Shown: positions 1,253 to 29,165 of the stretch, one piece after another
Numbering within the stretch: position 1 is the stretch's first letter
How the letters are laid out: each line of letters starts with the position of its first letter
Assembly: GCA_002340265.1 (NCBI GenBank)
Contig: DDLT01000057.1
Location: forward strand, 1-51,926
Length of the DNA stretch: 51,926 nt
Reading direction: 5' to 3'
DNA from: Lentisphaeria bacterium UBA2565
Lineage (GTDB): Bacteria > Verrucomicrobiota > Lentisphaeria > UBA2565
Position numbers and translations under genes: made by a program
Notes under the pieces: model-generated
What the model was told of the DNA's origin: nothing
Databases searched by the model: none
Seen by the model: only the letters and a program-made list of their open reading frames with translations

Positions 1253-3451
1253 ATGAGTTTTAAACATCTATCTGTGATGGCCTTTTTGGGGTTGGCAATC
1301 TGTTCATTTGGAGAATATGAACAGTCTGAAATAAAGTTAACACCGTTTTATGAAAAACAGGGCGGAGTTGGAACGGCATTTGTTAGAGCGGCAAAACAGA
1401 CCGCGATTATAAATAGTCTGCCGAAAGTAAAACGTGTTGAGCGTAAAGCCTGTGTGTTTAAGAGTTATGCAGAACAGTATATTGAATGCCAACGGGTCGG
1501 AAAACTTTTCATGAATCGTGATTTCAAGGCGTTGAATGAGGCTTTGGAGCGTTATAATGGAATGTTGGATGTGGGTGGTTGTTCGTATATCTATGAGTTG
1601 AACTGTTTCATTCAAGGCCGTTTTGGAGGTTTTGAGATTGCGAAGGAGTGGAACTCCGGCAAGTTTAACTCCGGTTTTTCAGAGGCTATTTTGGCGGATT
1701 ATTACATCACCCGAGCTTGGTTTTCACGAACAGATTCTTCGGGGAAGTATGTAACGGATAAGGGTTGGGAGCTGTTTCGTAAATATATCGCTAAGGCACA
1801 TGAACATGCTATGCAGTCATTTAAGAAGAACCCATCACTGTCCCTTGGTGTTTCACCTCTTCTTCGGTGTGTTGGTTCATCTGGAGGAAGCGATAACAGT
1901 GCGTTGTACCTTTGGGCAAATCTGGCTCTGGAAATTGAACCGTGGAATATAGATATAATTCGTTCGACCTATCATTTTTTACAGCCTAAATGGGGCGGCA
2001 GTTTTGAAGCATTAAAGCAAATTGATAGTGAAATTTCTAGTGTTGATCAAAGTTTTGTACCTACTGCGTTAATGAAATTCAAGTTATTCCGTGCTGTGAG
2101 GGTAATTTATGACTGTTCAGGTGCGTCAAGAGAACAGTGGCAGGCAGTCAATCGTGACTGTTTTGAAAGTACAGAGAAAGCTATTCGAGAGAGGCTTATT
2201 ACAAAATTTCCAGATCGGGTCGTTTACATGGAAACGCTTTTGAAGGCTGCGATTTATTTTGGTTATTGGGAGGATTTTGACCGAATCTTCGATGAAGCTG
2301 TTAAAATCTTTCCAAATGAATACATACTTTATTTTCAGAAAAATGAAAAACTGAAGAAAGCTCAGAGTAAAGATTACGAGGCTCGTTTGAAAAACTTAAA
2401 GAAAGCGGAGTCACTTTTCTCAAATGACGGCCTGATTCATTACGAGTTGGCATTAATTGGTAAAGAAAAGCCGGAATTGGTGTCGAAAGCTGAACGTGAT
2501 AACTATCTGAAGCGTGCCGAAGAACTTTTAAATAACTCTGAAAATGTACAGAAGACAAAGCTGTTGAGGTTTGAGCTTTTGGTTCAAGATAAAAAATATG
2601 CTGAAGCTGATGCTTATATAAAATCAATTCCTCCTCATTCTATCACTAAGCAGGACTTTTCAGAAAAAATTGCACTGTTTTATGCTGATGAATCGTATGG
2701 TTTTTTCGATATGGAAAAAGCTTGGCAGTTTTACATGCTTAACTGGACGTTGCGTTATAGGGAAAATTTGGATAAGAATGTACTTGCTCAAAGCAGTGCT
2801 GGCGGCTCGAACGTTTGCAAGGAGTGGGTTCGCATGGGAGATAAGTTTTATGATAAATATACGGATGATTATCGGGGTGCTTATACGCTTTTAAAGATGC
2901 ATTATGGAAAAGCGGAAGCTTATGTAAATGAAAAAACACCTGAGTCGGTGAAATCGGATTTTTTTTATGAAAAAGGGAAGGTTCACTTTTTTACAAACAG
3001 TAATGCGGAGGCTTTTAAGGCATTTGAGAAATCAGTGAGCCTTGAAGAGACATTTAATAACATTTCCTTTTACGCTCGAGCGGCACAGCGGCTAAAGAAA
3101 AATGATGTGATGAATGAATATTTTGAAAAATGTTGGCAGCTTTGTAAGGATGATGAGCATTTGAATTCATATCGATCTTATGTGGCACGAGCTTATGCGA
3201 ATGTACTTCTCAAGCAAAAGAAGTATAACAAGGTGTTACAGATTACGGAAAAGGTTTTGAATTCGAAGTATTTGGATAATTTTGATAACACAGACTGTCT
3301 TTGCTTAAAAGCGGCGGTTTCTTTGCATCGTGAGGAATATGGAAATACCGAAACCCTTTTAACTCAGGCAAATGAAATCTGCGAATATAAATACTTACGT
3401 AAAAAAATTAAAAGATTGCAGGCTAAGCTTAAGAAAGCCCAAAAAAAATAG
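1253..3451 (+). CDS. Secreted helical-repeat (TPR/Sel1-like) protein of unknown function
   Basis: Long ORF. ATG at 1253 is preceded by GGGGA. N-terminal hydrophobic signal-like segment MSFKHLSVMAFLGLAICSFG. Lys/Glu/Tyr-rich helical-repeat composition. No family recognised. Confidence 0.6.
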   Translation: MSFKHLSVMAFLGLAICSFGEYEQSEIKLTPFYEKQGGVGTAFVRAAKQTAIINSLPKVKRVERKACVFKSYAEQYIECQRVGKLFMNRDFKALNEALERYNGMLDVGGCSYIYELNCFIQGRFGGFEIAKEWNSGKFNSGFSEAILADYYITRAWFSRTDSSGKYVTDKGWELFRKYIAKAHEHAMQSFKKNPSLSLGVSPLLRCVGSSGGSDNSALYLWANLALEIEPWNIDIIRSTYHFLQPKWGGSFEALKQIDSEISSVDQSFVPTALMKFKLFRAVRVIYDCSGASREQWQAVNRDCFESTEKAIRERLITKFPDRVVYMETLLKAAIYFGYWEDFDRIFDEAVKIFPNEYILYFQKNEKLKKAQSKDYEARLKNLKKAESLFSNDGLIHYELALIGKEKPELVSKAERDNYLKRAEELLNNSENVQKTKLLRFELLVQDKKYAEADAYIKSIPPHSITKQDFSEKIALFYADESYGFFDMEKAWQFYMLNWTLRYRENLDKNVLAQSSAGGSNVCKEWVRMGDKFYDKYTDDYRGAYTLLKMHYGKAEAYVNEKTPESVKSDFFYEKGKVHFFTNSNAEAFKAFEKSVSLEETFNNISFYARAAQRLKKNDVMNEYFEKCWQLCKDDEHLNSYRSYVARAYANVLLKQKKYNKVLQITEKVLNSKYLDNFDNTDCLCLKAAVSLHREEYGNTETLLTQANEICEYKYLRKKIKRLQAKLKKAQKK

Positions 3452-3504: not shown

Positions 3505-6051
3505 ATGAAAAACGTTTTGTTAAAGGTTGTTGTTCTTTACATTGTTATGATGCTTTTCGGTTGTGCGTCCAGTAAACGTATGATGCGTATTTCGCCGCTT
3601 TCTGAAGAAATTAATGATAAACTGTCGTCTACAACCCGAACTAACGCCTGGCCGGTCTACTATCATGATAATGGTGTTAGTTCGTTATTTTGGCCATTTA
3701 TTGATTGGGATAAAAATGGTTTTGCATTTCGACCTATTTACAACCAGGAAGGAAATGATAAGTCAATTCTGTGGCCGTTGAGTGGATGGAATTCAGAAAA
3801 AGGCGATGGCTGGGCTCTTAGCGCATATTGGCATAATGACTATCATGGGCTATTTCCGATTTACCATTATACACCTGAAGAATTGAGCTATTACCTTCTC
3901 TATTGGAGAAATGGTCGTGATGCTCAGGGACTTTTACCGCTTTACGGGTATAGCAAAGATTATTGTCACTTCCTTAATGTGTATTGGGGACGCGGTAATT
4001 AAAGTGAGGTTTACGGGCTGTTTCCATTTTACTTTCATTCACAAAAATCATCAATGATTCCGTTGATTTATAACCGTACAAGTTCTGCTGATAAATATGA
4101 TTATCTATATTTATTAGGATTAGGAGCTCGCTTTTGCAAAGACAAAAATGGTGAAATGTCTTACGTTGTCCCTTTCTGGTACAACCAGCAGTATGGAAAC
4201 GGTACAGGACTTACAGCGATTACACCTTTTTATTGGAACTGGAAGAGTGCTGAAAATAGCAATTCATCGCTTCTTTTTCCGCTTTATTATCAGAGTTCAA
4301 CTCCTAAAACAAGCCGGATTCATTCCCTTCTAGGTCATAATATTGTAAAAGAGAATGAAGAATCATTTGCCGTCTATCCGCTTTTTTTCAAAGGGAAAAG
4401 CCCGGATATTTCGTATAACTTTCTTGTTCCGCTCTATTATAAGCAGGTTGTTGATGGCGAGTCGTTGTTTGTGACTCCGCTAGGTGGTTATAGTCATGAC
4501 CCGACAGGAAAACATAAATTTACTAATTTCCTCGGACCTGTCTATATAAACCGTAGGGATTCAGATTATTACTTTAATTCGGTGTTTTGGCCGTTTTATG
4601 TGTCGCATGGCGACCAATCATATTCCAGTAGATGGCTTTTTCTGTTTTTTAGAGCTAAACAAGACAATGAGAGTGAACTGTTAAATGTGATGCTGTTGGC
4701 TTACCATTCTGAATCAAATAAGAACGGTGAGTTCTGGAAACATGTTTGTTGGCCTTTTTATATAGATAATGGCGATGCAGACAAAAGAAATACATATTAT
4801 ACACCGTTTTATATGCGACACCGTACCGACGATTTGGATAGGCACCTTTTAATGTTCGGATTGGGGAAATATGAGAAGTGTAATAGAGGTGCTGGTTACC
4901 GAATTTGGCCGTTTGCCTCAGGTTATGACTATAAAACTAAATTCAACCTTTTTGACTACACTATTTACGGAATGCGCCAACGCGGTAAAAAAACAACAAA
5001 CTGGCTTTTTCCATTTTATTACGGATGGAACCGTGAAAACCAGACAGATCGACAGTTCCTGTTATCGATTGCCCGCTCTTACAGCAACGGAGAAAATTAT
5101 AGACGGAGTCTGTGGCCGTTTTTTTTAGTAAGTACGGCTTTTGAGAAGAAAAACTTTTGGGACGACTTAGGACTATTTTTGTTTGAAAACCATAATTATG
5201 AAAATCAAAAACGGTCCGGTTGGTCAACGTTTGGTGTGCTTGGATTTTCGCATGAAAAAAGTGTGCACAAGAATGCTGAACAGTCGTCGTCAAATAACCA
5301 TTTTCTACTGTTCGGGTCTAAGAAAAGTAACAATTATAATTTAAATCAAATTCCCGAGCCACTGACTTATTCATACCAGAGAACCATCAAAAGTAATGAA
5401 TTCAACTATTTGCTTTACTCTGATAGTGAAAATCACTTTAGAGTTTGGGAAAAAGACGCGTTGACGGATGATGAAATGAAAACTATCAGTCATTGGGTTT
5501 ATAAAACCGGACAAAAGTATGGTTCGATGAAAATTAAGAGCTCAGGTATTTCGTTTGACGAAAACTCCGGTACTAACTTTTCATACTATACAAAAGAGAC
5601 CAGTGAAGAGTTAACAGAGAAGGTTAAAGCAATTCTTACTAAATATGAAGTAGACTATGCGTCGGATGAAAAAGCTAAGCTGAGAACTGCCGTCGAAAAA
5701 CTGGCGGAGAAGAAAAGTAACATCACCGTTGAGAGTAATAACGCATTCTGGCCGTTTTATGACTATTCATCAAGTGAAGGAAACCATAAATTTGAGTTCT
5801 TGTTTGGTGTGGCGAGTTCCAAGCGGGTAGGGGACAAGTCAAGAACTACAGTTTTAAAGTATCTCTATCGAAGAGAGCAGGAAGGTGAGAATGTACGTCG
5901 CGATATTTTCCCATTTATAAGTGTAGATAGTGGAGAAAATGGTGGTCATTCATTTTTAGGAAAGTTGTGGAATTTCAGGAAAGGGAAGGAGGGACGTTAT
6001 GGTCACTTCCTTTTTATTCCATGGGGAAAGCATCCAGAAGAAAAAAAATAG
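3505..6051 (+). pseudogene. Aromatic-Pro (WPFY/FPLYY) repeat lipoprotein interrupted by an in-frame TAA at 4000-4002. Could instead be two CDS, 3505..4002 and 4054..6051.
   Basis: Track ORFs 3496..4002 and 4054..6051 share one frame and are separated by a single stop. The repeat continues through it (GRGN*SEVYGLFPFYFHS). A signal peptide plus lipobox (LFGC) exists only on the first part. Confidence 0.6.
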
Positions 6052-6062
6052 GAGTGAAAATA

Positions 6063-6577
6063 TGACTTTAGTATCTGTAAGCTGTAACAGTTGTGGCGCG
6101 GCGTTGAACGTGTCTAATAAAAGCAAGTTTGTAACATGTAATTATTGTAAGTCTCAATTGAAAGTAGAGTCGTCGGGCGAGACTTTTTATACGGAAATCC
6201 TTGATGAAATTAAGGATGTGGCTGATGATGTGGAAACGATCAAGCTTCAAAATCAACTTGAACGATTGGACCGTGAATGGGAGATGAAGTGTAAAAGTTT
6301 TATGGTTCGTGATAATGATGGACATGAACACATACCTACAGCAGGAGGTAGCGCCGCTGGGGGAATTATCGCTGTTGTAGGTGGTATTATCTGGATGATT
6401 TTTACAGCAAGTATGCCGGGAGATCCTGCAATATTTCCTCTTTTCGGATTAGTTTTCATTGCCGTTGGTGTGATTGGTTCATTCTCGAATGGCTCAAAAG
6501 CATCTGAATACCAAACACAAAAACAGCAGTATGATGCGAAGCGTCGACAGTTGATTAAGCAATTAAAGAATCGATAA
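6063..6577 (+). CDS. Zinc-ribbon membrane protein (N-terminal CxxC...CxxC, coiled segment, C-terminal TM helices)
   Basis: ATG at 6063 follows AGGAG. Sequence MTLVSVSCNSCGAALNV...TCNYCKSQLKV. Gly/Ile-rich TM segment. Paralogue of the next gene. Confidence 0.7.
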
Positions 6578-6594: not shown

Positions 6595-7128
6595 ATGGAA
6601 ACAGTTTCAGTTTGTTGTGATAGTTGCGGGGCTAGTTTGGAGTTTCCCAATGGTGTTTCTTTTGTCACTTGTAACTATTGCAAATCGAAGTTGAAGGTGA
6701 AACAGACAAGTTCGACATCTTATACTGAGATTGTTGAAGAGGTTCGTGCAATGTCCGAAGATGTAGAGAGCCTTAAGAAGGAGAGTAGACTCGAACGCCT
6801 TGATCGTGAGTGGGAATCTCAGAAAGAGCTTTTTATGATTAAAAAGAAAAATGGATTCTCTTATCTGCCGACTGATGTGGTTTCGTTTAGTCAGTTTATT
6901 CCGGTTCTGTTCGGAGGTTTAATTGGTTTTGTGACGTTGTCTATTGTTCTTTTGAGCGGGAACAAAGTGGAAGGTGTTACAATTTTTATGCTCATCCTTT
7001 CGGTTTTGACCATTCTATTTGGACTGTTCTTAATTCAAAATCGTTATAAAATGAAGAACTTATATCTGAAAGCTGAGTTGAGGTACAAGGATTCTCGCCG
7101 CAAGCTTCTAAAAGAGATGAACTCTTAG
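6595..7128 (+). CDS. Zinc-ribbon membrane protein, tandem paralogue of 6063..6577
   Basis: METVSVCCDSCGASLEF...TCNYCKSKLKV. Shares the LERLDREWE motif and the C-terminal TM region. RBS AGGAG upstream. Confidence 0.7.
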   Translation: METVSVCCDSCGASLEFPNGVSFVTCNYCKSKLKVKQTSSTSYTEIVEEVRAMSEDVESLKKESRLERLDREWESQKELFMIKKKNGFSYLPTDVVSFSQFIPVLFGGLIGFVTLSIVLLSGNKVEGVTIFMLILSVLTILFGLFLIQNRYKMKNLYLKAELRYKDSRRKLLKEMNS

Positions 7129-7632: not shown

Positions 7633-7685
7633 TTTTAATGAATAAAAAGTGAAAACGTAAATCACTGGTGGCTAAGGAAGTCATT

Positions 7686-8186
7686 ATGAAAACTGTTTAT
7701 GTAAATGATAAGATGCAGCAGGGGTATAGTTATATCTTGACCGAACCGGAAGGCGAAAATTTTCATCCTGACTTTGAGCCGGAGTTGTCACCCAAGGAGT
7801 TACTTGAGCTTGGTGTGTTCGGTGGAAAGTATATGACTGACTGCCGGGAAGAGTTTCCTGATGAGTGGTTTGTAAGTGCTAAGTTAAGTCCTAATGGTAA
7901 GAATATAGATTTGAACTATTTTGGTGTAGATGCGTCGCAACCGTTAGCGAAGTGGATTGAAAAGGGCTGGATTAATCCCCAGGACCCACGTGGCTGGTTT
8001 CAATGGTATTGTCGTTATTATATGGGGCGTCGTACAGATGATGACTTACGACAGATCAAGCGTTGGCGGGCATTTAGGCGTCATATCGGTGCGATCAAAA
8101 AGTTCTGTAAACCTTTTGATATGGATTGTCGTAAAAAGCAGCGACAGGCACTTTTGCACTGGGCCTACGATTCAAGAAAAATTTAA
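7686..8186 (+). CDS. Conserved hypothetical cytoplasmic protein
   Basis: ATG at 7686 is preceded by AAGGAAG. Trp/Arg-rich motif GWFQWYCRYYMGRRTDDDLRQIKRW. Family not recognised. Confidence 0.6.
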   Translation: MKTVYVNDKMQQGYSYILTEPEGENFHPDFEPELSPKELLELGVFGGKYMTDCREEFPDEWFVSAKLSPNGKNIDLNYFGVDASQPLAKWIEKGWINPQDPRGWFQWYCRYYMGRRTDDDLRQIKRWRAFRRHIGAIKKFCKPFDMDCRKKQRQALLHWAYDSRKI

Positions 8187-8207
8187 AAAAGCAAAGCCGT
8201 GAGATTT

Positions 8208-8684
8208 AACCACGAATGATTCGAATGAAACGAATAAGGGCTCTTTATGAGTGAAATTTTATTCAAAACTGAATCGTATGATATTATTGGTTCTTGTTTT
8301 AATGTTTACAACAATATTGGACATGGTCTGCTTTAACCTATTTATCAAGAGTCGCTTGAATTGGAATTTGATGAGCAACTTGTTCCATTTTGTGCTCAAA
8401 AAGAGTTGGATATTTATTACTGTGGAACCCTGTTAAAGAAAAAATATATCCCCGATTTTATCTGTTATGGAAAGATTATTGTAGAGATAAAATCAGTAAA
8501 GGTTTTGTTACCAGAACACGAGGCTCAGCTTTTCAACTACTTAAGAATAACTGGAATGAAACTTGGCCTCTTAGTTAACTTTGGCTGTTATCCTAAATTG
8601 GAATACAAACAAATAGTCTGTAATACGATTCTTTAGTTTTTAAAAAATTCGTCTCATTTGATTGATTCGTGGTTTAAAATGTGA
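8208..8684 (+). mobile_element. Non-autonomous cassette of about 477 bp inserted in a terminator loop. It has 31-nt imperfect terminal inverted repeats, a flanking 15-bp direct duplication, and carries a GxxExxY gene.
   Basis: AAAGCCGTGAGATTT occurs at 8193-8207 and again at 8685-8699. Left arm 8205-8235 (TTTAACCACGAATGATTCGAATGAAACGAAT) matches the reverse complement of 8647-8677 at 26 of 31 positions. Confidence 0.5.
8247..8636 (+). pseudogene. GxxExxY family protein (PD-(D/E)XK-like, 23S-IVS-associated family) with TAA replacing the signature Glu
   Basis: ATG at 8247 gives MSEILFKTESYDIIGSCFNVYNNIGHGLL*PIYQESLELEF..., in the same frame as track ORF 8361..8636. The motif G-L-L-(E)-P-I-Y carries TAA at 8334-8336 where GAA is expected. 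Confidence 0.75.
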
Positions 8685-8715
8685 AAAGCCGTGAGATTTT
8701 TGCTCTCACGGCTTT
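8685..8715. terminator. Bidirectional intrinsic terminator between convergent genes
   Basis: Perfect 12-bp stem: AAAGCCGTGAGA (8685-8696) with TCTCACGGCTTT (8704-8715). A/T runs on both sides. Confidence 0.7.
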
Positions 8716-8720
8716 GTTGT

Positions 8721-9731
8721 TTAAGCATATAGTGTTTTGCCATTTATCCAACTGAAGTCGATGGGATCATTTGTGAGTTTGCGGCGTTGCGATAGTTTTT
8801 TATACCTCGGAGCCAGTTTGCATAGGAACTCCTGCGCTTTTTCTGCTTCATTTGAAAGTCCCGATAGATTTTTAAGATTCCACTTTTCTACTAGATAACC
8901 GACAATTTCAGCATAATCGTTTGCAGTATAAACACCGGCTTTCTGAGCCACACGGGAAAAGCTGTCATAAAGGTTTTGGTCTTTGCCGTCAAACATCGAT
9001 TGCGACGGCATGGCGATTTGGTGACGCATCATTTTTTCAAACGCCAAGACTACTCCGTTTGGATCGATTTGCAGCATTTTTTCAATGAAAAATTGATAGG
9101 CTTCTTCGTGTCGTTTTTCATCAGCACAGATAGCGGCGCAGATTCTCTGCAACTGTTTATCTCCCGCTTTTGCCGCGAGACGTCCCGTGTTACGATGTGA
9201 AATTTTGGTGGCGCGTTCTTGAAAAGAGGTGTAGATAAATCCAAGATATGGATCAGTTCCAGTGCCGGAATCAAAGCCGTTGTTGATTAGGTGTTGAATT
9301 GTAATTTGCACAGCTTTCATGTCGACTCGCCCGGAAAGTAGTAAATATTGTGACAAAAGGTCACCATGGCGGTTTTCTTCGGCAGTCCAGCCGCGAACCC
9401 ACCTAGAAAGTACATTGCTGCTTGTACCAGTGGGGTCGTGAAAGCCTTCAAGTCGATTGAACCAGCTCATATAAGTCGGCAACGCTTCTTCGGTGATCAT
9501 GTCGCCGACTAATGAAATAATCAGTTCATCTGGCAGGGCTTGAGCACGTTGGCGAAGTTGATGAAGTTGTTCAATACCTTCATCGGTTTGCAGGTCTGGT
9601 AGAAAATCGGCGGGTTGCCAAGATGTTGAAATTGGATTTAAGAGGGTGTCGATATTGTTTTCGATATCTTTTTCTATGCTTTTGAGAACTTCGGTACGAC
9701 TGAGCAGTTCTCGATTTATGGAAGATGACAT
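8721..9731 (-). CDS. Soluble acyl-ACP desaturase (di-iron, plant/mycobacterial DesA type)
   Basis: Two di-iron motifs: TAEENRHGDLL and ADEKRHEEAY. Length and overall pattern fit stearoyl-ACP desaturase. Confidence 0.85.
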   Translation of the reverse strand: MSSSINRELLSRTEVLKSIEKDIENNIDTLLNPISTSWQPADFLPDLQTDEGIEQLHQLRQRAQALPDELIISLVGDMITEEALPTYMSWFNRLEGFHDPTGTSSNVLSRWVRGWTAEENRHGDLLSQYLLLSGRVDMKAVQITIQHLINNGFDSGTGTDPYLGFIYTSFQERATKISHRNTGRLAAKAGDKQLQRICAAICADEKRHEEAYQFFIEKMLQIDPNGVVLAFEKMMRHQIAMPSQSMFDGKDQNLYDSFSRVAQKAGVYTANDYAEIVGYLVEKWNLKNLSGLSNEAEKAQEFLCKLAPRYKKLSQRRKLTNDPIDFSWINGKTLYA

Positions 9732-12465: not shown

Positions 12466-15006
<2,541 letters not shown>

Positions 15007-15053
15007 AGGTATCAGGCGATGGGCGTTAGGCATAAGGAAAACCTAGTAACAGC
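15007..15053. repeat. Heptad tract (AGGnnnn units); left arm flanking the four-helix-bundle gene
   Basis: AGGTATC AGGCGAT GGGCGTT AGGCATA AGGAAAA. 15022-15037 matches the reverse complement of 15454-15469 at 14 of 16 positions. Confidence 0.7.
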
Positions 15054-15083
15054 GTCCTTGTTTGAATAATAAAAAGTTTTCTT

Positions 15084-15440
15084 ATGAGTGGAAAGTTTAG
15101 AGATTTAAGAGTTTGGCAGAGAAGTAAAGCACTTGCTGTTGAAACTTATCGTGCCACAACTGGTGAGTTTTGGGATAGAGACTATGATTTAAGGCGTCAA
15201 ATTCGACGTGCCGCAGTAAGTGTCCCTTCCAACATTGCCGAAGGTGATGGAAGAAGAAGTGATAAAGATTCTTGTCGCTTTTTCTTAATTGCCAATGGTT
15301 CATTGTCTGAACTTTCCACACAATTAGAAATTTCAATGGAAATTGGATACTTGAGTAAGGAGGCTTTTCTAGCTTTCGAAAGTGAAATTCGAGAAATAGG
15401 GCGAGAGCTTGGAGCATTAATTAAGGCACGAAGAGGGTAA
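15084..15440 (+). CDS. Four-helix-bundle protein (23S rRNA intervening-sequence protein family)
   Basis: RVWQRSKALAVETYR...RRQIRRAAVSVPSNIAEGDGRRSDKD...FFLIANGSLSELSTQLEI matches the family signature (SIpsNIAEG.gR.s..e...Fl.iA.GS..E). Confidence 0.85.
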   Translation: MSGKFRDLRVWQRSKALAVETYRATTGEFWDRDYDLRRQIRRAAVSVPSNIAEGDGRRSDKDSCRFFLIANGSLSELSTQLEISMEIGYLSKEAFLAFESEIREIGRELGALIKARRG

Positions 15441-15483
15441 CTGTCACCCTACGCCTTACGCCTAAAGCCAGATGCCTAAAAGG
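15441..15483. repeat. Heptad tract (Cnnnnnn, ...GC|C units); right arm flanking the four-helix-bundle gene
   Basis: CTGTCAC CCTACGC CTTACGC CTAAAGC CAGATGC CTAAAAG. Confidence 0.7.
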
Positions 15484-15491
15484 AAATTATT

Positions 15492-18167
15492 ATGGACGAA
15501 ATTAATGAAAATACAGAAGTAGAAGTTATGGAGGATGCGATCTCTTATAACGATATTCCAGTGAATATCGAAGATGTGATGCATACCAACTACCTTCAAT
15601 ACTCTTTGAGTGTAAATATCGGGCGTGCGATTCCAGATGTACGCGATGGTTTGAAACCGGGTAACCGCCGTATTCTTTATGCGATGCATAAACTTGGTCT
15701 GACTAAGAGTCGCGGATTTGTTAAAAGTGCACGTGTGGTCGGTGAAGTAATCGGTAAATATCACCCACATGGTGACCAGGCTGTTTATGATACAATGGTT
15801 CGTATGGCTCAGGACTTTAACATGTCTGTGCCGCTTGTTGATGGTCAGGGTAACTTCGGTTCGATTGATGGTGATAACGCCGCGGCTCACCGTTATACAG
15901 AGTGTCGTATGGAACGTACTGCTGAGGAACTTCTAGTTGACCTGGAACGCAACACAGTTGACATGGCACCTACTTTTGATGAAAGCATGTTGGAGCCGAC
16001 TGTGCTTCCTGCCCGTTTCCCGAATATTCTGGTAAACGGTGCGACTGGTATCGGTGTGGGTATGGCGACAAGTATTCCTCCTCACAACCTTGGTGAAGTG
16101 GTTCGTGGTACAATTGAACTTATCGACAATCCGGCAATCACAACTGCTGAGTTGATGCAACATGTTCCTGGTCCAGACCTTCCAACAGGTGCATCGATTG
16201 CGGGTCTTCGTGAAATTGTAAAACTTTACGAAACTGGTCGCGGAATCATTCGTATCAAAGCGAAAGCTACAATCGAAGAAAAGAAAGACGGTTCAGAACA
16301 GATTGTCATTACCGAGATTCCTTATGCGGTGAATAAAGAGCGTGCGATTAAAAAGATTGCCGACCTTATCCGCGATAAAGTCATTACCGGAATTCGTGAC
16401 ATTACCGATGCGTCTTCAAAACGTTTGAAAGACAATCCATTTGGTATCAAAATTGTCATTGATGTGAAACGTAACGCGTCGGCAAATGTGGTATTGAATC
16501 AGCTTTATAAACACACACCACTTGCTTCAAGTATGGGATGTCAGCTTCTTGTGATTCACAAGAATCGTCCTGTAACAATGAACCTGAAACAGGTACTTCA
16601 GGCGTATATTGACCACCGCTGGGAAGTGATTCACCGTCGTAACCTTTTTGATCGTGAAAAGGCTCAAGAACGTGCTCACATTTTGGAAGGTTTGTTGAAA
16701 GCTGTTGATAACATTGATGAAGTTGTAAAAATCATCAAAGAGTCTCGCACAAGTGAAGAAGCTGGAGCAGCTCTTCGTCAACGTTTTGAACTGAGCTTCA
16801 AACAGGCGAAAGCGATTCTTGCAATGCGTTTGAGTCAGCTTACCGGACTGGCAATTGATACGCTACAGTCTGAATATGACGAGTTGATGGAACGTATCGC
16901 TTATTTGACTTCTCTGATTGAAAGTCGTGAATTGACAATGGGCGTTGTGCGTGAAGAGCTTGAAGAAATTCACAAGAAATATGCTCAGGATCGTCGAACT
17001 GAATTGATTCCTGGTGAGTCTGAAATCAACCTTGAAGACCTAATTGCGCGTCGTGTGGTAGCGATTACGGTTTCAAATACCGGCTACATCAAGCGTATGA
17101 ATATGGATGAATTCCGTAAACAGAACCGTGGTGGCAAAGGTGTGATTGGTATGAAAACCAAAGAAGATGATCACGTTGAACATCTTTTCACTGCCTGTAC
17201 GCATGATTACATTCTGTTCTTTACTAACAAAGGTCAGATGCGCTGGCTGAAAGCTTACGAGATTCCAGAGTCAGGACGTACCGGTAAAGGTCAGGCGTTG
17301 GTGAATCTGTTTGAACTTGAAGAAGGCGAACAGATCCGTGCAATGTTGACAACCGATTCACTTGACGTGGAAGAGCGTTATGCGATTATGGCAACTAAAA
17401 ACGGTGTAATTAAGAAGACTGAACTGAAAGCGTTCCGTCATCTACGTAAGAAAGGAATCCGTGCGCTGAATATTCGTGAAGGCGATGACCTAATTGACGT
17501 AGCGATTACCGACGGAACAAATCACGTGATGCTTTCAAGTGCACTTGGTAAAGCATGTCGTTTCCGTGAAACCGACGTTCGTCCGATGGGACGTACTGCG
17601 GCGGGTGTTCGTGGTATCACACTTGCCGAAGGTGACAGTGTCGTAGCAATGTCGGTTCTAAATCCGACTGCTGATATTCTGGTAGTGACCGAACTTGGTC
17701 AAGGTAAACGTACTAAAGTTGGTGAAGGAAATGCTGAAGCCGATGCGAACATTGTCGGCGGATATCGTTTGACAAAACGTGGCGGTAAAGGTGTGACCTC
17801 TGTAAAACTCGGCGATGATGACAAAGTAGTTGCGGCGCTTCAGATTGAAGAAGACTGCGATATCATGATGATGTCAATCAAAGGTCAGATGGTACGAATT
17901 GGTACTGATCAGATTCGTCAGATGGGACGTGCTTGTAAAGGTGTCCGCGTGATGAGTTTCAAAGACAAAGGCGACCGTATCAGTTCTGTTTCTAAAATTG
18001 CCGAAATGGCAGAAGAGGAGACTGAACAAGAACTAGATGAAAACGATAACCCAATTGCTCCAGTGGAAAGTAACGAAGCTACCGCTGAAGCAACAGAAGG
18101 TGCAGAAACTGCACCAACCACAGATGGTCCAGAAGCAACTGAAGACTCAGCAGAAACAGCTGAGTAA
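15492..18167 (+). CDS. gyrA: DNA gyrase subunit A
   Basis: Active-site AAHRYTECRM, quinolone-region GKYHPHGDQAVYD, GyrA-box NRGGKGV, and an acidic C-terminal tail. Confidence 0.95.
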   Translation: MDEINENTEVEVMEDAISYNDIPVNIEDVMHTNYLQYSLSVNIGRAIPDVRDGLKPGNRRILYAMHKLGLTKSRGFVKSARVVGEVIGKYHPHGDQAVYDTMVRMAQDFNMSVPLVDGQGNFGSIDGDNAAAHRYTECRMERTAEELLVDLERNTVDMAPTFDESMLEPTVLPARFPNILVNGATGIGVGMATSIPPHNLGEVVRGTIELIDNPAITTAELMQHVPGPDLPTGASIAGLREIVKLYETGRGIIRIKAKATIEEKKDGSEQIVITEIPYAVNKERAIKKIADLIRDKVITGIRDITDASSKRLKDNPFGIKIVIDVKRNASANVVLNQLYKHTPLASSMGCQLLVIHKNRPVTMNLKQVLQAYIDHRWEVIHRRNLFDREKAQERAHILEGLLKAVDNIDEVVKIIKESRTSEEAGAALRQRFELSFKQAKAILAMRLSQLTGLAIDTLQSEYDELMERIAYLTSLIESRELTMGVVREELEEIHKKYAQDRRTELIPGESEINLEDLIARRVVAITVSNTGYIKRMNMDEFRKQNRGGKGVIGMKTKEDDHVEHLFTACTHDYILFFTNKGQMRWLKAYEIPESGRTGKGQALVNLFELEEGEQIRAMLTTDSLDVEERYAIMATKNGVIKKTELKAFRHLRKKGIRALNIREGDDLIDVAITDGTNHVMLSSALGKACRFRETDVRPMGRTAAGVRGITLAEGDSVVAMSVLNPTADILVVTELGQGKRTKVGEGNAEADANIVGGYRLTKRGGKGVTSVKLGDDDKVVAALQIEEDCDIMMMSIKGQMVRIGTDQIRQMGRACKGVRVMSFKDKGDRISSVSKIAEMAEEETEQELDENDNPIAPVESNEATAEATEGAETAPTTDGPEATEDSAETAE

Positions 18168-18429: not shown

Positions 18430-19494
18430 ATGGGAGAGAAAATAATGACTAAAAACAAATTGATTCGTAATTCCACTGCTGAGTTTTTGATTTTTACTGG
18501 GCAAAGTGGGGAAAGCAGTATTGAGGCTCGTTATGAAGACGAGACAATTTGGCTTTCTCAAAAATTGATGGCAGAGCTTTTCGATGTAAATGTTAGAACC
18601 ATAAACGAACATTTGCAGAATATTTACAAAAGTGATGAACTTACGAAAGAGTCAACTATCCGGAATTTCCGGATAGTTCAAACCGAAGGAAACCGTCAAG
18701 TAACACGTAAGGTTGACTTCTACAACCTTGATGTGATTATTTCTGTTGGTTATAGGGTAAATTCAGTTCGTGCCACGCAATTTCGTCAGTGGGCGACAGC
18801 TGTATTGCGTGACTTTGCAGTTAAAGGCTATGTGATCGACCGTGCAAGAATGGAAAACGGGGTTTTTCTTGATGAAAATTATTTTGAGACTCTTTTAGAG
18901 GAAATTCGTGAAATTCGTCTCTCGGAGCGTCAATTTTATCAAAAAATCACTGATATTTATGCTACGAGTGTGGATTATAACAAGGAAGCTCCAACTACGA
19001 GGAAGTTTTTTGCTAAAGTTCAAAATAAATTACATTTTGCAATTCATGGCCACACAGCAGCAGAATTGATTGTCGAACGAGCAGATTCGACTAAGGATAA
19101 AATGGGACTTTCAAACTGGAAAAACTCTCCCGATGGTAAAATTCTTAAATCGGATGTTTCAGTAGCGAAAAACTATTTGAGAAAGAGTGAAGTTGATAAT
19201 TTGGGGAAAATTGTTAATGCCTATCTGGAATTGGCTGAGTTGAGAGCAAAGCGACAGATTCCGATGACCATGGAAGATTGGGCTAAAAGACTTGACCTTT
19301 TCTTGGAGCTCGATGATTGGAATGTTTTAGAAGGTTCAGGTAAAATTACTTCAGCAGTCGCCAAAGATTATGCTGAAAGTGAATTTGAGAAATACCGGAT
19401 TGTCCAAGACAAACTTTTTGAAAGTGATTTTGATAAAATACTACGCCTTTTAGAAGATTCTGTCGAATACACAGTAAAACCTAACAACAATTAG
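18430..19494 (+). CDS. RhuM family (virulence-associated, DNA-binding-like) protein
   Basis: IEARYEDETIWLSQKLMAELFDV...NLDVIISVGYRVNSVRATQFRQWAT is the typical RhuM N-terminal pattern. Alternative start at ATG 18445 with GGAGAG upstream. Confidence 0.75.
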   Translation: MGEKIMTKNKLIRNSTAEFLIFTGQSGESSIEARYEDETIWLSQKLMAELFDVNVRTINEHLQNIYKSDELTKESTIRNFRIVQTEGNRQVTRKVDFYNLDVIISVGYRVNSVRATQFRQWATAVLRDFAVKGYVIDRARMENGVFLDENYFETLLEEIREIRLSERQFYQKITDIYATSVDYNKEAPTTRKFFAKVQNKLHFAIHGHTAAELIVERADSTKDKMGLSNWKNSPDGKILKSDVSVAKNYLRKSEVDNLGKIVNAYLELAELRAKRQIPMTMEDWAKRLDLFLELDDWNVLEGSGKITSAVAKDYAESEFEKYRIVQDKLFESDFDKILRLLEDSVEYTVKPNNN

Positions 19495-19497
19495 AAC

Positions 19498-20418
19498 ATG
19501 ACTAAATTCTGTTATTTTTATGATCGCAATGGCGATACCATTGAACTTTCGAAGGCGGAGGCGCTTCATCTTACTCAAGGTGAAATTGTCGCGCATGGTG
19601 TTATCGTTAGTGACACGGCTTGTGATTGGCAACGTTCAGCTTTTATTCGTGGTGGTGGAAAGTTGATTGCTTCTGGAAAAAATCTTGATGCACTTTGTGA
19701 ACGCCTTGAAGAGTTAAATGTTTCCGCAAATAATTTTAAGATTGTGTCGGAGCCGATTCCACGTTTGCGAAAGGGGGATCATCATGCAATTATTCAGGTG
19801 GCTGATTCGATCAAAGGCCCTGTTGACCTTAAAAATCCGGAAACTGTTTTTGTGCTTATTATAAGTGGTGAAGGATGCTGGTTGAGTGAAAGTGATGAAG
19901 AAGCCGAACAAGCTTGGAAAACTTTAAAATATAAACCTTTTGCTTTTTGTAATGCGTTGCCGATTAAGATTGCACGAGCGATGATTAATTTGACGGCTAC
20001 ACATGGCGATTCTGTTTTTGATCCGTGCTGCGGGTCGGGAACAATTCCATTGATGGCGGCTGAACTCGGCTTTTCTGCAATGGGTGGTGACAAGAGTTGG
20101 CCGAATTTGAATATAAGTCGAAAGAATATAGCTCATTTCGGTTTTGATGCAGAACTGCTACAGGAAGATGCCACGGAAACTAACCGGGCTACAGGCTGCA
20201 TTGTGACGAATCTGCCTTACGGCTTGTATTTGCCGATTTCTGAAGAGGTATTGATTGGAATGCTAAACAATTTTAAGGGGTTAACTAAAAAGGTCTCGAT
20301 TGTGACAACTGACGATATTTCTGAGAAGTTGACAGATTGCGGCTATCAAATCAATCAGCATATTTTGTCTAAAAGTAACAATTTGGTACGTCATATTTAT
20401 TTGACTGAGGTGATTTAA
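19498..20418 (+). CDS. SAM-dependent methyltransferase (UPF0020/Trm11-like, NLPYG catalytic motif)
   Basis: Motif I is VFDPCCGSGTIPLMAA. Motif IV is IVTNLPYG. Starts 3 nt after the rhuM stop. Confidence 0.7.
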   Translation: MTKFCYFYDRNGDTIELSKAEALHLTQGEIVAHGVIVSDTACDWQRSAFIRGGGKLIASGKNLDALCERLEELNVSANNFKIVSEPIPRLRKGDHHAIIQVADSIKGPVDLKNPETVFVLIISGEGCWLSESDEEAEQAWKTLKYKPFAFCNALPIKIARAMINLTATHGDSVFDPCCGSGTIPLMAAELGFSAMGGDKSWPNLNISRKNIAHFGFDAELLQEDATETNRATGCIVTNLPYGLYLPISEEVLIGMLNNFKGLTKKVSIVTTDDISEKLTDCGYQINQHILSKSNNLVRHIYLTEVI

Positions 20419-21218: not shown

Positions 21219-23165
21219 ATGACCACAGATTCACAACTACCTCCTGAAGTCGAATTGCATTTGAACGATTCTTATCAAATGGCCTATTCTGAAGAAGAGG
21301 ATGATTTAATTCTAGAAAAACAGCAGAACTTTTCTGAATCACAATATTCGGATAAAGAGCTATATGCCGTTGGTGGAATGAAGATGGTTTCCACGGTTTT
21401 AGATGCTAAAACTGACCGAACTATTGCTTTCGCAGAACTGAAAGAGGGTGTCGATTCAAAAGAAAATGTGGGGCGTTTCTTACGTGAGGCACGAATCACG
21501 GCAGCTTTGGAACATCCTAATATTGTGCCGGTTTATGATGTGGGTGTAAAAGATGACGGTTTACCGTATTTTACGATGAAATTTCTCCAAGGGGAAACGC
21601 TGAAGAAGGTTTTGCGTGAACTTTTAAAATCCAACCCGGTCTATGTGAAGAAATACCCGCTTAACTCTCTCTTAGAAGTTTTTATGAAAATTTGCGAAGC
21701 TGTAGCTTTTGCCCACTCTTGCGGCGTGCTTCACCTCGACATAAAACCTGAAAATATCATGATTGGAAAATATGGAGAGGTGTATCTTTGTGATTGGGGA
21801 ATTGCAAAGATTGTGACTAATCATGAAAATCTTCATACAGGAGTGGCGACGCTTGATGCAGATGTGTTGAATGACATTACCCTAAGTGGAGTCGTTAAAG
21901 GTACGTCGGGTTTTATGGCTCCGGAACAGGTTGACGACTCGTTTGGTAAAAAAGATGTTCAGACGGATGTTTATTCTCTCGGCGCACTTTTCTATAATAT
22001 TTTAAGCTTACGTCAACCTTTTTCTGGTAAATCAGCACAAGAGGTCTTGGAGCTGACTGTGTCTAAGGAGACGTTTTCAAACAGGTTTATGTCGAACTGG
22101 GATGTGACTGATGCGTTGAAGGCGATCTGTTTTAAAGCGGCAAGCACGGTTAAATCGAATAGATACGGTTCTGTTGAAGAGCTGATAGCTGACATTCGTT
22201 TTTATCAAAGTGGCTTTGCTACCAAGGCGGAAGACACCAATTTCCGTAAAGAGTTTTTCCTTTACTTTAAGCGTCACAAGTTTTTGGGATTTGGTATACT
22301 GTTTTTTGTTTTGAGTTTTATTTTAATGTTTGTAGTTGTGAGCCACCTAAGCGAAGAGCGCAGTGTTAACGAGAAGTTGATTGTGGAAGAGAATGAAAAG
22401 ACTGTAGAAAAAATAAAGAGTGCTGCAAAGTCCAGGTTTGCGCGATATGAACGGTCAATCGACAAACTTACCGATTTGCTTAAAGATGAAAAGTTAAAGT
22501 TAGCTGAATTCAAATTGAAGTACGAACCGGTAGCTATCAGCATCAACTTTACCGACGGTGGAGCCGGTTTTTATGCGTCGAAGTCTAATAGAGCAGGAGT
22601 GTATGAACGTGGCTATTGGATGACTCATGCAGGGCGCTGGGAAAGTGGGATATCAACAATAGAATATTTGCGAAATAGTGATGGGGTGGAGACTGAAGTT
22701 GCTTTTCAAATTGCTGAAGGTGCTAGAATTGGAGGAGCTCACGGATCTGACTTTCTAGAGTTAAATAATGACAAAGCCCGCTTTAATAATGTAATGATGG
22801 AGAATTGGACCGACTTTTATGGTACTGCAAGCATTAAGTTTTCAGGACTAAGTAGCTTTGCCTCTGAATATGATGTAATTGTGTATTCTTCTAGACCAAA
22901 CAAAGGTTACAGAGCAAAGTTCTCAATAGAAGATAGACATTTGTTTGTAAATGTGGAAGAAAGACCATCCAGTAGTTTTGTGCGAAGCTCTGCAAGATCT
23001 CTCGAAGAGTTGAGCGAAAATGAAGCATCTACAAATTATGTGGTATTTGAGTCTTTAAAAGGTGACAGTCTTGAACTAAAAATAGAAAATATCTCAAATC
23101 ATTGGGCTGCCATTTCCGGTATTCAAATTGTCCAAAAACAATTACCCATTATTGGTAATCAGTAA
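21219..23165 (+). CDS. Transmembrane Hanks-type Ser/Thr protein kinase with an extracytoplasmic beta-sandwich (malectin/CBM-like) domain
   Basis: HLDIKPENIM, CDWGIAK (DFG equivalent), GFMAPEQ. One TM segment (FLGFGILFFVLSFILMFVVV). C-terminal roughly 250 aa ends ...WAAISGIQIV. Confidence 0.85.
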   Translation: MTTDSQLPPEVELHLNDSYQMAYSEEEDDLILEKQQNFSESQYSDKELYAVGGMKMVSTVLDAKTDRTIAFAELKEGVDSKENVGRFLREARITAALEHPNIVPVYDVGVKDDGLPYFTMKFLQGETLKKVLRELLKSNPVYVKKYPLNSLLEVFMKICEAVAFAHSCGVLHLDIKPENIMIGKYGEVYLCDWGIAKIVTNHENLHTGVATLDADVLNDITLSGVVKGTSGFMAPEQVDDSFGKKDVQTDVYSLGALFYNILSLRQPFSGKSAQEVLELTVSKETFSNRFMSNWDVTDALKAICFKAASTVKSNRYGSVEELIADIRFYQSGFATKAEDTNFRKEFFLYFKRHKFLGFGILFFVLSFILMFVVVSHLSEERSVNEKLIVEENEKTVEKIKSAAKSRFARYERSIDKLTDLLKDEKLKLAEFKLKYEPVAISINFTDGGAGFYASKSNRAGVYERGYWMTHAGRWESGISTIEYLRNSDGVETEVAFQIAEGARIGGAHGSDFLELNNDKARFNNVMMENWTDFYGTASIKFSGLSSFASEYDVIVYSSRPNKGYRAKFSIEDRHLFVNVEERPSSSFVRSSARSLEELSENEASTNYVVFESLKGDSLELKIENISNHWAAISGIQIVQKQLPIIGNQ

Positions 23166-23182
23166 AAAGTTATCTTGTATGT

Positions 23183-23215
23183 CTGTTAACTGCTGACTAC
23201 TTACTGTTAACTGTT
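23183..23215. repeat. Heptad tract (CTG/ACTG every 7 nt); arm flanking the ECF sigma gene stop
   Basis: CT(G/A) trinucleotide (CTG, CTA at 23197) at 23183, 23190, 23197, 23204 and 23211. The reverse complement reads AACAGTT AACAGTA AGTAGTC AGCAGTT. Confidence 0.7.
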
Positions 23216-23803
23216 TTACTCCAGCATTTCACGGAGATTTCTTATTTCCGCATATAATTTCTGCTTTACACGATTTTTATAGATGTAAATTGTGTTCTCT
23301 TCCAAACCGAGCCGTTGAGCTGTTTCTGCAACTGGTTCGTTCCTTAAACTGGCTTGAAAGCACTCCATCGCCTGGGCTGACACTTTTTCTTTAATGGTAT
23401 TGAATGCCCGTTCGGATATATACTTTTCCCATTCATTATGAATTATCTTGTTAATCTCTGCCTTATTGTGACCATCGCTGAATGACTTGAACTCTTCACG
23501 ACTCTTTAAAAGATTTTTATTGGCTTTGATAAAGCTGATAACGGTATTACGGGTAATTGTATAAAGCCAGTTTCTAAAGTAGCCCTTTTTCTGATTATAA
23601 TCGAAGTTCGGAAGTGCCTGCCAAATCTTTAAAAGTGTTTTCTGCGCCAGATCATCACAATCAGACTCATTTACACCCATCTTGATAATTATCGAATAGA
23701 TGAACTTCTTGTAGTAACGATAAAACTCTTCCCACGAACTCTCCGAATCGGAATTCTTGAGTTTCTTGAGCAGTGTTTGTCTTGTGAGATATGTATCAGT
23801 CAT
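23216..23803 (-). CDS. ECF-type RNA polymerase sigma factor (kinase-associated type)
   Basis: Region 2 (DDLAQKTLLKIWQALPNFD...FRNWLYTITRNTVISF) and region 4 HTH (ETAQRLGLEENTIYIYKNRVKQKL). No adjacent anti-sigma gene. Confidence 0.8.
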   Translation of the reverse strand: MTDTYLTRQTLLKKLKNSDSESSWEEFYRYYKKFIYSIIIKMGVNESDCDDLAQKTLLKIWQALPNFDYNQKKGYFRNWLYTITRNTVISFIKANKNLLKSREEFKSFSDGHNKAEINKIIHNEWEKYISERAFNTIKEKVSAQAMECFQASLRNEPVAETAQRLGLEENTIYIYKNRVKQKLYAEIRNLREMLE

Positions 23804-23807
23804 TTTT

Positions 23808-23830
23808 TTCAGTTATCAGTTAGTAGTTAC
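23808..23830. repeat. Heptad tract (TTCAGTT ATCAGTT AGTAGTT); arm flanking the ECF sigma gene start
   Basis: 23810-23827 matches the reverse complement of 23196-23213 at 16 of 18 positions. Confidence 0.7.
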
Positions 23831-24001
23831 ATCTAGCCTTTCGCATCTCGCATCAAAAAAATCAAAAAAACTTAAAAAAGTTGTCCAATAGCAATAAGTG
23901 AAAAGTATACTGGTTTGAATGATTCTTAAAATATCGTGTGATATTTGAATGTCAATTGAATGATTTTTTATAAACAAAAACAACAACATGAGAGGAAGAT
24001 T

Positions 24002-27000: not shown

Positions 27001-27008
27001 CTCTATAA
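24002..27008 (+). pseudogene. Secreted GEVED x2 / Fn3 / Ig-like / LamG protein with the shared C-terminal domain, disrupted by a 1-nt insertion (about 25115) and an in-frame TAG (25773-25775)
   Basis: Track ORFs 23960..25123, 25104..25775 and 26013..27008 join into one protein colinear with 29940..32957. SVTL|RDRTNGGGW repeats the earlier SITLRDNVNGTGW after a +1 shift. The TAG aligns with the conserved LamG Trp (FMTWVNV in the paralogue). Confidence 0.75.
26379..27008 (+). repeat. Shared C-terminal domain module, copy 1
   Basis: TPAIGLELSLEGTELVWTVEDE...EGWNLIAITSDDADLETLKDETVGVLWGWNG...LNLGWNMVGPV...GGKGYWIFSL. Long near-identical nucleotide runs with copies 2 and 3. Confidence 0.85.
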
Positions 27009-27080
27009 GGTTTCAGGTTACAAGTTGTAAGGTTGCAAGTTTTTAACCTGTAACCTTTAACTTTAAAACCTTTAACTTAG
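27009..27080. repeat. Heptad tract that switches from GGTT/AGTT words to AACC/AACT words
   Basis: GGTT or AGTT at 27009, 27016, 27023, 27031 and 27038. AACC or AACT at 27045, 27052, 27059, 27067 and 27074. Confidence 0.7.
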
Positions 27081-27127
27081 ATAAAATTTCTTCTCCCTAG
27101 AATGCGGACGGTTTTCCGCATTCGGTT

Positions 27128-27157
27128 AGCTGCGATCGAAAGGTCGCAGCTTTTTTT
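27128..27157 (+). terminator. Intrinsic terminator
   Basis: AGCTGCGA-tcgaaagg-TCGCAGCT followed by seven T. Confidence 0.8.
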
Positions 27158-29163: not shown

Positions 29164-29165
29164 GA

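Follow-up and report, generated by a model that had tools for sequence, protein, structure and literature searches.

A GxxExxY nuclease-gene cassette with inverted arms at a terminator hairpin of a Lentisphaeria bacterium

Genes of the GxxExxY family (PF13366) are very common in several phyla, with many copies per genome, and are annotated as being of unknown function. One of them lies in contig DDLT01000057.1 of Lentisphaeria bacterium UBA2565 (assembly GCA_002340265.1), flanked by inverted repeats and placed directly ahead of a terminator hairpin that serves two host genes, one for a conserved 166-aa protein and the other for an acyl-ACP desaturase. An earlier reading of this DNA, made from the letters alone (the sequence-only reading), had regarded it as a mobile or formerly mobile insertion that targets hairpins. 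What kind of element is this, how did it reach the terminator, and what has become of its gene? We addressed these questions in the whole stretch of 51,926 nucleotides (positions 1 to 51,926 of the forward strand), called the window below, and in related loci.

The answer that we favor, with moderate confidence, is that positions 8208-8684 are a copy of a promoterless cassette with a single gene, widespread and horizontally mobile, which was inserted in the loop of the terminator, spreads by means of its nuclease and forms an RNA similar to that of the intervening sequences (IVSs) of rRNA genes. We rate the element as a selfish gene cassette bracketed by a stem, and the copy in the window as a freshly inactivated relic.

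The cassette and the terminator around it

The 15-mer AAAGCCGTGAGATTT has two exact copies on the plus strand of the window, at 8193-8207 and 8685-8699, and no further copy was found in these 51.9 kb with up to two mismatches allowed. The repeat is significant: in 200 shufflings of the flanks a direct repeat of at least 15 nt never arose. Its right copy forms the first 15 nt of an intact bidirectional terminator hairpin (8685-8715) with a 7-nt loop and a 12-bp stem (8685-8696 with 8704-8715) that is perfect at 12 of 12 pairs. The hairpin was detected by a repeat finder and by a terminator scan, and its energy is -19.1 kcal/mol on the plus strand (z = -5.2) and -19.5 kcal/mol on the minus strand (z = -7.5). 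The left copy is a duplicate of the left arm of this terminator together with three loop bases. If 8207 is fused to 8700, the result is TAAAAAAGC-AAAGCCGTGAGA-TTTTTGC-TCTCACGGCTTT, a clean terminator located 6 nt past the stop codon of the 166-aa gene. Deletion of 8208-8699 gives the predicted empty allele, with GCAAAGCCGTGAGATTTTTGCTCTCAC as the sequence spanning its junction.

Between the two copies lie the arms of the cassette. The left arm (8205-8235, plus strand) begins with a TTTAA-CCAC end and continues with three 9-nt units in tandem, namely AACCACGAA, TGATTCGAA and TGAAACGAA. The right arm (8647-8677, plus strand) is an inverted copy of it, complementary at 26 of 31 positions (84%). 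The 15-mer pair, the perfect hairpin, the match of the arms and the terminator restored by deletion had all been described in the sequence-only reading, and all were found again in the sequence. The left repeat copy abuts or overlaps the left arm; the right copy is separated from the right arm by a 7-nt filler, AATGTGA (8678-8684, plus strand), which does not fit a classical target-site duplication. The GC content of the cassette is 31.4%, versus 43-44% in the neighboring genes; the cassette is an insert of foreign composition.

The long stem suspected in the first reading does form in the predicted RNA. In both the minimum-energy and the centroid folds of 8180-8725 (z = -5.0) the arms pair with each other and close a stem of about 28 bp around the open reading frame (ORF) of the cassette. 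The left repeat copy pairs with the right arm of the terminator (8704-8718), and this helix is stacked below the cassette stem. Joined by a short artificial loop, the two arms alone give -31.6 kcal/mol (z = -8). At gathering thresholds Rfam returned nothing for the whole window, and for the cassette and one gene-less hairpin it gave only sub-threshold matches to generic miRNA-type hairpins. No rRNA or tRNA was found in the window, and the element sits between two protein-coding genes. On the minus strand, the left repeat and the end of the left arm make up a weak terminator-like hairpin at 8197-8215 (TCGTGG-TTAAATC-TCACGG, then CTTTGCTTTT), which could halt antisense read-through toward the 166-aa gene or may be a coincidence.

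The cargo is a disrupted gene of the GxxExxY (PDDEXK_3) nuclease family (8247-8636, plus strand, 129 codons). With its internal stop read as glutamate, the product matches TIGR04256 with 129.5 bits (cut-off 35, E = 7e-38) and PF13366 with 125.7 bits (cut-off 22, E = 1.6e-36). The family named in the sequence-only reading is therefore right, these scores being far above the cut-offs, but the gene is not whole. Its codon 30 is an in-frame TAA (8334-8336, plus strand), which replaces the invariant glutamate of the GxxExxY motif; the codon is GAA in two related loci, L007 and L008. A segment of 611 bp that includes the stop is 100% identical in three independent metagenome assemblies of the Joint Genome Institute (JGI), and thus the stop is not an assembly error. 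Because of it, gene callers report only a 91-aa tail that starts with TTG at 8361. For annotation, the picture given here accounts for the truncated 91-aa calls named PDDEXK_3 and for peculiar peptide-like repeats with which such ORFs end.

Residues E30, P69, D70, E80 and K82 are invariant among 25 diverse homologs. When the window translation was read by eye against 29 invariant columns of the family, it departed from them only at E30 (the stop) and R122 (Q). Thus P69, D70, E80 and K82 are kept in the window copy, although the GxxExxY motif itself is not intact. Between the window and L007 the cargo differs by 56 synonymous and 13 non-synonymous codons, which shows long purifying selection on the ORF. 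Since all the other invariant columns are kept, the window copy must have died recently. We consider it a recent pseudogene, i.e., a family member that, judging by its codons, is no longer autonomous. In an AlphaFold model (predicted local distance difference test score, pLDDT, 91.5) the nearest structures are Cas4 SSO0001, lambda-exonuclease-like enzymes, splicing endonucleases and Hjc, and the fold is confidently predicted to be that of a PD-(D/E)XK nuclease. Searches of PADLOC, PHROGs and PDB sequences with the nuclease gave no match.

Mobility and arms across the family

Among intact homologs, P0001 and P0002 come closest to the repaired protein, with 91% and 89% amino-acid identity. Related contigs (L007, L008-L011, L025 and L060) are syntenic with the window, and in them the cassette lies between a DUF1294 gene and the 166-aa gene, i.e., upstream of the latter, versus downstream in the window.

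Comparison of L007 with L008 bears on mobility. The DNA identity of these two contigs is 76.2% in the 166-aa gene and 96.2% in the cassette gene; in the upstream flank there are about 21-31 matches per 40-column window (about 52-78%). The left arm has TTTAACCAC at its outer end, and with the first base of this sequence the block of high identity sets in; it continues through the right arm. Because the synonymous sites of the cargo are free to vary, as its 56 synonymous differences between the window and L007 demonstrate, an identity of 96% can only mean recent common ancestry. The mobility claimed in the sequence-only reading thus gains firm ground: a 96% identical cassette lies in flanks of about 76% identity, and the step falls exactly at the left arm. 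This pattern indicates that the cassette has passed between diverged genomes into the same site and that the unit extending from arm to arm is horizontally mobile. Our confidence in the anatomy and mobility of this class of cassettes is high.

A separate comparison concerns L008 (about 3830-3960) and L025 (about 3870-3950). Their flanks and cassette genes are 99-100% identical, and sharp differences are confined to the loop that separates the left arm from the inner right arm, with 25-31 matches per 40 columns and a 42-nt indel. This loop in the 5' hairpin of the cassette is a fast-changing segment.

For the arms we surveyed 15 GxxExxY genes from several phyla. The loci examined include L012/L062, two genes of the L013 rml operon, five loci of viral contigs, and copies on plasmids or chromids of Treponema, a fusobacterium, Bacteroides and Prevotella. 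Arms were regarded as clear if they had at least 20 Watson-Crick pairs out of 26, and such inverted arms flank 11 of the 15 genes. Their design is a (TT)AACCAC-, TCACCAC- or GTCCAC-type end followed by three 9-nt units. The units seen are CACGAAT, CACAGAT, CACAGAG, CGCGAAAAG, CAGATGAAC or CACAGAGGA (in Bacteroides, viral contigs and one further group). The unit varies between cassettes and is always the same in both arms of one cassette. In Treponema the arms are shorter and weaker. An extra inner right arm, which forms a small 5' hairpin with the left arm ahead of the gene, is present in L007, L008 and L054.

Arms are also encountered apart from the gene. Tandem gene-less hairpins follow the gene in L012 (3450-3775), and L039 has a free gene-less hairpin at 3932-4024 with a perfect 28-bp stem. 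The motif AACCACGAAT-N4-CGAAT-N4-CGAAT (AACCACGAATnnCACGAATnnCACGAAT) occurs in 25 stretches of IMG/VR viral contigs (L026-L050), where a rough estimate gives an expectation of less than 1. These are mostly solo arms just upstream of phage genes, several of them 1-25 nt before the ATG, and none of the 25 stretches has a GxxExxY gene nearby. The viral-contig scan yielded GxxExxY genes at only five loci, which helped with the anatomy of the arms and are too few for statistics.

Several short palindromes look like fused arm ends. Their sequences are TTACCAC-AC-GTGGTAGA, AGCCAC-A-GTGGCT and CCAC-T-GTGG, and they occur at cassette-free sites or beside cassettes: L007 4950-4966, L016 3434-3448, L060 (reverse strand) about 1296-1280, L013 4362-4374 and L012 3616-3624. 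Those of L012 and L013 lie beside cassettes. In L007, L016 and L060 TTACCAC-AC-GTGGTAGA stands 6 nt past the stop codon of the 166-aa gene, close to the position of the cassette in the window. Such palindromes could be excision scars or targets of the nuclease; written as a duplex, the candidate target is TTACCACACGTGGTAGA.

Another trace of the cassette may be preserved in L016, in a different context (after a sulfatase gene) and upstream of a 166-aa gene with 92% identity. Here, at 2815-2925, the strings CGAATAAATAG and AAAAATAGG match the inner left arm and the region before the ATG of the L007 cassette, and this segment may be a decayed remnant. The L013 locus shows that several cassettes can colonize one operon with the gene order undisturbed: two GxxExxY cassettes with different arm units (3001-3384 and 4426-4800) lie between consecutive genes of an rmlA-rmlC-rmlD-rmlB-type operon. 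In the literature we found no paper describing the organization or spread of GxxExxY genes.

Insertion at the terminator and its alternatives

The 166-aa gene (7686-8186, plus strand, from the ORF list) had no match in Pfam, NCBIfam, PADLOC or PHROGs; its homologs number in the thousands, at 70-92% identity. The desaturase gene (8721-9731, minus strand; PF03405, E = 3e-132) converges on it and uses the same terminator, which is the only transcribed intergenic DNA 3' of the 166-aa gene in the window. The promoter scan revealed no promoter-like site between the 166-aa gene and the ATG of the cassette, and the transcript of the 166-aa gene probably reads into the promoterless cassette. All cassettes with annotated or called neighbors are co-oriented with the upstream gene and usually lie a few bases before the next start codon. 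Their co-orientation and the lack of a promoter-like site indicate promoterless cassettes that live on host transcripts.

The window contains a single copy of the cassette and, as the sequence-only reading had stated, no recognizable transposase: in the 33 ORFs scanned against Pfam no transposase or integrase domain was found. The GC content of the window is 40%. Among its other genes are tandem paralogous zinc-ribbon membrane proteins (5999-6577 and 6595-7128), two pairs of type II topoisomerase genes (gyrB/gyrA-like, 12484-18167, and parE/parC-like, 41963-46336), a RhuM-family gene adjoining a DNA methylase gene (18430-20418), and two sigma-70-family (region 2) genes within 21219-29744, each downstream of a Ser/Thr kinase gene and on the strand opposite to it.

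The course of events that we propose is as follows. The element is a small PD-(D/E)XK nuclease gene between inverted arms of about 28-31 nt, each with a CCAC-type end and three 9-nt repeats. This cassette, or else a sister copy situated across the 166-aa gene, would have entered the loop of the terminator common to the 166-aa and desaturase genes, and the entry would have duplicated 15 nt, namely the left arm of the terminator and three loop bases. The cassette would thereby keep its transcription from the upstream gene and be followed by a whole terminator that serves both convergent genes. In the transcript the arms would pair into a long stem, stacked on the one formed by the duplicated half of the terminator. 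An IVS is laid out in the same way, so RNase III probably trims the cassette RNA off the host message. As to spreading, the nuclease probably cuts cassette-free sites, with the CCAC..GTGG palindromes as candidate targets, and repair would then copy the cassette in. The invariant catalytic residues, the PD-(D/E)XK fold, the occupation of the same site in diverged genomes and the palindromes together suggest homing driven by the nuclease, along with an occasional insertion elsewhere. The change of GAA to TAA has finally removed the glutamate of the catalytic motif. Our confidence is moderate as to the duplication being the mark of an insertion into the terminator, and low to moderate as to homing and processing by RNase III. 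The duplication itself may have arisen from a staggered break, from a template switch at a stalled hairpin, or as the junction of a tandem duplication with subsequent losses.

An empty site of the kind foreseen in the sequence-only reading does exist in a relative. L007 and L060 share with the window the succession of 166-aa gene and desaturase gene, and the terminator between these genes has no insert; it is the uninterrupted hairpin AAAGCCGTGAAAC-TTTTTG-GTTTCACGGCTTT (5044-5075 in L007). Candidates for closer syntenic relatives, with 166-aa homologs at 92% and 79% identity and desaturase homologs at 82% and 75%, were rejected, as they either lack the synteny or repeat the arrangement of L007.

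Several observations weigh against the proposed course of events. The only empty site belongs to a species with about 20% DNA divergence, and its hairpin is about 100 nt past the stop codon, versus 6 nt in the window. A cassette-free allele of the exact site was not found in metagenome and genome collections, which is a weak negative result. The 21-mer of the empty site, GCAAAGCCGTGAGATTTTTGC, is too short for such collections: it gave one chance match in each, and both fall in coding sequence with no relation to the site, namely a Christensenellales ORF and an outer-membrane-receptor-like ORF of high GC content. The DNA identity between the window and L007 is 79% in the cassette and 81% in the host genes, and such a divergence is as compatible with vertical descent plus a local rearrangement as with a new insertion. 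As a target-site duplication the 15-nt repeat is atypical in its length, in its 7-nt offset and in being absent from 11 other cassettes. The mismatches of the arms comprise 9 G-U and 8 A-C, which is uninformative with respect to strand, and nothing here favors pairing in sense RNA over symmetry at the DNA level. Finally, the activity of the nuclease, its target site and the cut by RNase III are predictions throughout the family.

The main rival is vertical inheritance with a local rearrangement and no new insertion. According to it, the ancestral order was cassette, 166-aa gene, terminator; the segment between the left arm and the terminator loop was duplicated in tandem, the first cassette and the second 166-aa gene were then lost, the order was thereby swapped, and the 15-nt repeat is the junction of the duplication. 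Indeed, the cassette is exactly one gene away from its position in the relatives, and its divergence from the L007 copy matches that of the host genes. Only the left copy of the repeat abuts an arm, which is what a duplication junction predicts and a target-site duplication does not. T-runs in the terminator loop (GATTTTT) and before the arm (TTTTTTTAACC in L007, ATATTTAACC in L008) would permit such a junction. There is also a possible scar at the old site: where the relatives carry the cassette, the window has AAATCAC-TG-GTGGCTAAGG (7659-7677, plus strand), a weak candidate that may also be a landing site. In a MAFFT alignment it pairs with the outer arm ends TTTAACCAC...GTGGTTTAGA of L007, L008 and L025; by a hand estimate this similarity is not significant by itself, and it is compatible with both insertion and rearrangement. 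On the other hand, the rearrangement needs three events versus one for insertion, the filler AATGTGA is not recognizable as a remnant of the 166-aa gene, and insertion is no special assumption, as cassettes of this class demonstrably move between genomes. On balance we consider the rearrangement unlikely, albeit worth keeping in view.

The direct repeat could alternatively be the mark of a transposase. The cassette would then be a non-autonomous transposon resembling a miniature inverted-repeat transposable element (MITE), with a transposase encoded elsewhere binding the arms and making a 15-bp staggered cut, and with the nuclease gene as a passenger. This is what terminal inverted repeats of 31 nt with 84% complementarity and a direct repeat at the window site would suggest, and gene-less hairpins with the same arms (L012, L039), as well as the solo arms common in viral contigs lacking a GxxExxY gene, could be read in the same way. 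However, we tested 12 cassettes for significant flanking direct repeats or a split host hairpin, and only that of the window has them; in the other 11 neither was found, and even in the window the repeat is offset by 7 nt on the right. Neither hairpin targeting nor a fixed target duplication is therefore a trait of the family, and this part of the sequence-only reading is not supported. Besides, the arm sequences differ among cassettes beyond the 4-6-nt end, which makes a shared binding site of a transposase unlikely; the cargo is of the same family in every gene-bearing arm pair examined; and the scanned ORFs of the window offer no transposase or integrase domain. Taken together, these data make a MITE-like origin quite improbable.

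The predicted stem allows one more reading, namely a domesticated RNA-processing module. Its arms would merely create an RNase III site that uncouples or stabilizes the messages of the neighbors, its ORF would be incidental and its DNA immobile. The long closing stem (z = -5) is in line with this, and so is the placement of cassettes, which always lie within operons or ahead of terminators and point the same way as the gene upstream. For the IVS of Coxiella, the RNA and not the protein was judged to be the relevant part (PMC4990558). An immobile module is nevertheless hard to reconcile with the sharp step from 96% to 76% identity at the arm, which signifies recent horizontal transfer, and with the foreign GC content; an incidental ORF does not agree with strong purifying selection and invariant catalytic residues, nor does the lack of a G-U bias in the arms speak for RNA. 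We find little room for this explanation.

The least credible proposal, an integron-type gene cassette whose arms serve as an attC-like folded site for an integron integrase, would explain a promoterless single ORF with foldable imperfect inverted repeats and a left end, ATTTAAC, that fits the RYYYAAC core by eye, but we rejected it on geometry, since the arms lie on both sides of the ORF where a single site 3' of the ORF would be expected, the right end, GTTTAAA, departs from GTTRRRY, the cassettes are single and within ordinary operons, and neither a cassette array nor a tyrosine recombinase was seen in the scanned ORFs of the window. IS200/IS605 elements have sub-terminal hairpins and not terminal inverted repeats. 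An IS200/IS605-type reading was also rejected, as the element of the window has terminal inverted repeats.

Comparison with known systems

A second cassette in the window helps to relate the element to rRNA IVSs. The gene of a 118-aa protein of PF05635, the family of "23S rRNA intervening sequence" proteins (15084-15440, plus strand, within a cassette at 15016-15477; E = 2.5e-33), stands alone between gyrB (12484-15006) and gyrA (15492-18167). Its arms are the imperfectly inverted AGGCGATGGGCGTTAGGCATAAGG and CCCTACGCCTTACGCCTAAAGCCAGATGCCT; the second contains two copies of the heptamer TACGCCT, and in the RNA fold the arms close the ORF (z = -6). An IVS architecture is thus found outside rRNA too, whichever of the two cargos it carries.

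The IVS of Coxiella is 428-444 nt long and of lower GC content; it contains a small ORF, its 28-bp terminal stem is cut by RNase III, and there are short direct repeats in the region of the stem (PMC4990558). The likeness to rRNA IVSs pointed out in the sequence-only reading is borne out by the stem of about 28 bp around the ORF of our cassette and by the PF05635 cassette with its own arms. Like the ORF-bearing 23S rRNA IVSs of Coxiella and Leptospira (S23p, PF05635), the GxxExxY cassette has a total length of about 430-490 nt and a stem of about 28 bp around one small ORF. It also shares with them a GC content lower than that of the host, a sporadic and horizontal distribution, an ORF that is often decaying and short direct repeats in the stem region (PMC4990558). 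Both sit in the loop of a host helix, the host stem being stacked under the stem of the element. The differences are that our cassette lies outside an rRNA gene, its host helix is an mRNA terminator, and a 15-nt duplication is present. The cargo of rRNA IVSs is a four-helix-bundle protein, whereas here it is a PD-(D/E)XK nuclease, and for our cassette cleavage by RNase III is a prediction. The sequence-only reading had placed the GxxExxY family in rRNA IVSs; our literature search tied PF05635 to IVSs and found no such tie for GxxExxY.

Free-standing homing endonuclease genes include PD-(D/E)XK enzymes such as I-Ssp6803I, and they normally have neither terminal inverted repeats nor gene-less hairpin derivatives. 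The cassette resembles them as a small nuclease gene between host genes, found at the same site in diverged genomes and with a sharp step in identity. It differs in having inverted arms and gene-less hairpins, in that its cleavage site is a candidate only, and in that the window copy is at a second site.

With repetitive extragenic palindromic (REP) sequences, their hairpin-forming doublets (REPINs) and the REP-associated tyrosine transposases (RAYTs) the cassette shares the arrangement of one gene between hairpin-forming inverted repeats and the presence of gene-less hairpins and shorter remnants in intergenic DNA. Here, however, the gene encodes a PD-(D/E)XK nuclease in place of an HuH/Y1 transposase, the arms are three 9-nt repeats that vary between cassettes, and many gene-bearing copies per genome are possible (two within 1.5 kb in L013). 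Correia elements of Neisseria, also called Neisseria miniature insertion sequences (NEMIS), are MITEs processed by RNase III, without a gene and with a TA duplication. Similar to them are the terminal inverted repeats of about 26-31 nt, the intergenic position, the co-transcription and the long RNA hairpin of the cassette; dissimilar are its gene and the absence of a flanking duplication in 11 of 12 cassettes.

More broadly, and only tentatively, GxxExxY genes with inverted arms of 9-nt periodicity may constitute an undescribed class of autonomous hairpin elements across several phyla. Their nuclease would recognize CCAC..GTGG palindromes or the folded arms and thereby drive insertion and spread, and the elements would shed gene-less hairpins, solo arms and palindromic scars. 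They would be the protein-gene counterpart, and possibly the source, of ORF-bearing rRNA IVSs. We regard this wider view as possible but doubtful. Nevertheless, a mobile unit extending from arm to arm, co-varying arms of three 9-nt repeats, invariant catalytic residues and palindromes at empty sites provide a concrete and testable picture. It links two old puzzles, namely the nature of ORF-bearing rRNA IVSs and the small nuclease or four-helix-bundle genes that litter operons.

The cassette fails a defining feature of each of the systems that it resembles, since it lies outside rRNA, has inverted arms and has no HuH transposase. Nor does it pass as a MITE, for want of a consistent target duplication, or as an integron cassette. 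Its geometry is most like that of an ORF-bearing rRNA IVS, its population genetics is like that of a free-standing homing endonuclease gene, and its shedding of hairpins is like that of the REPIN/RAYT system.

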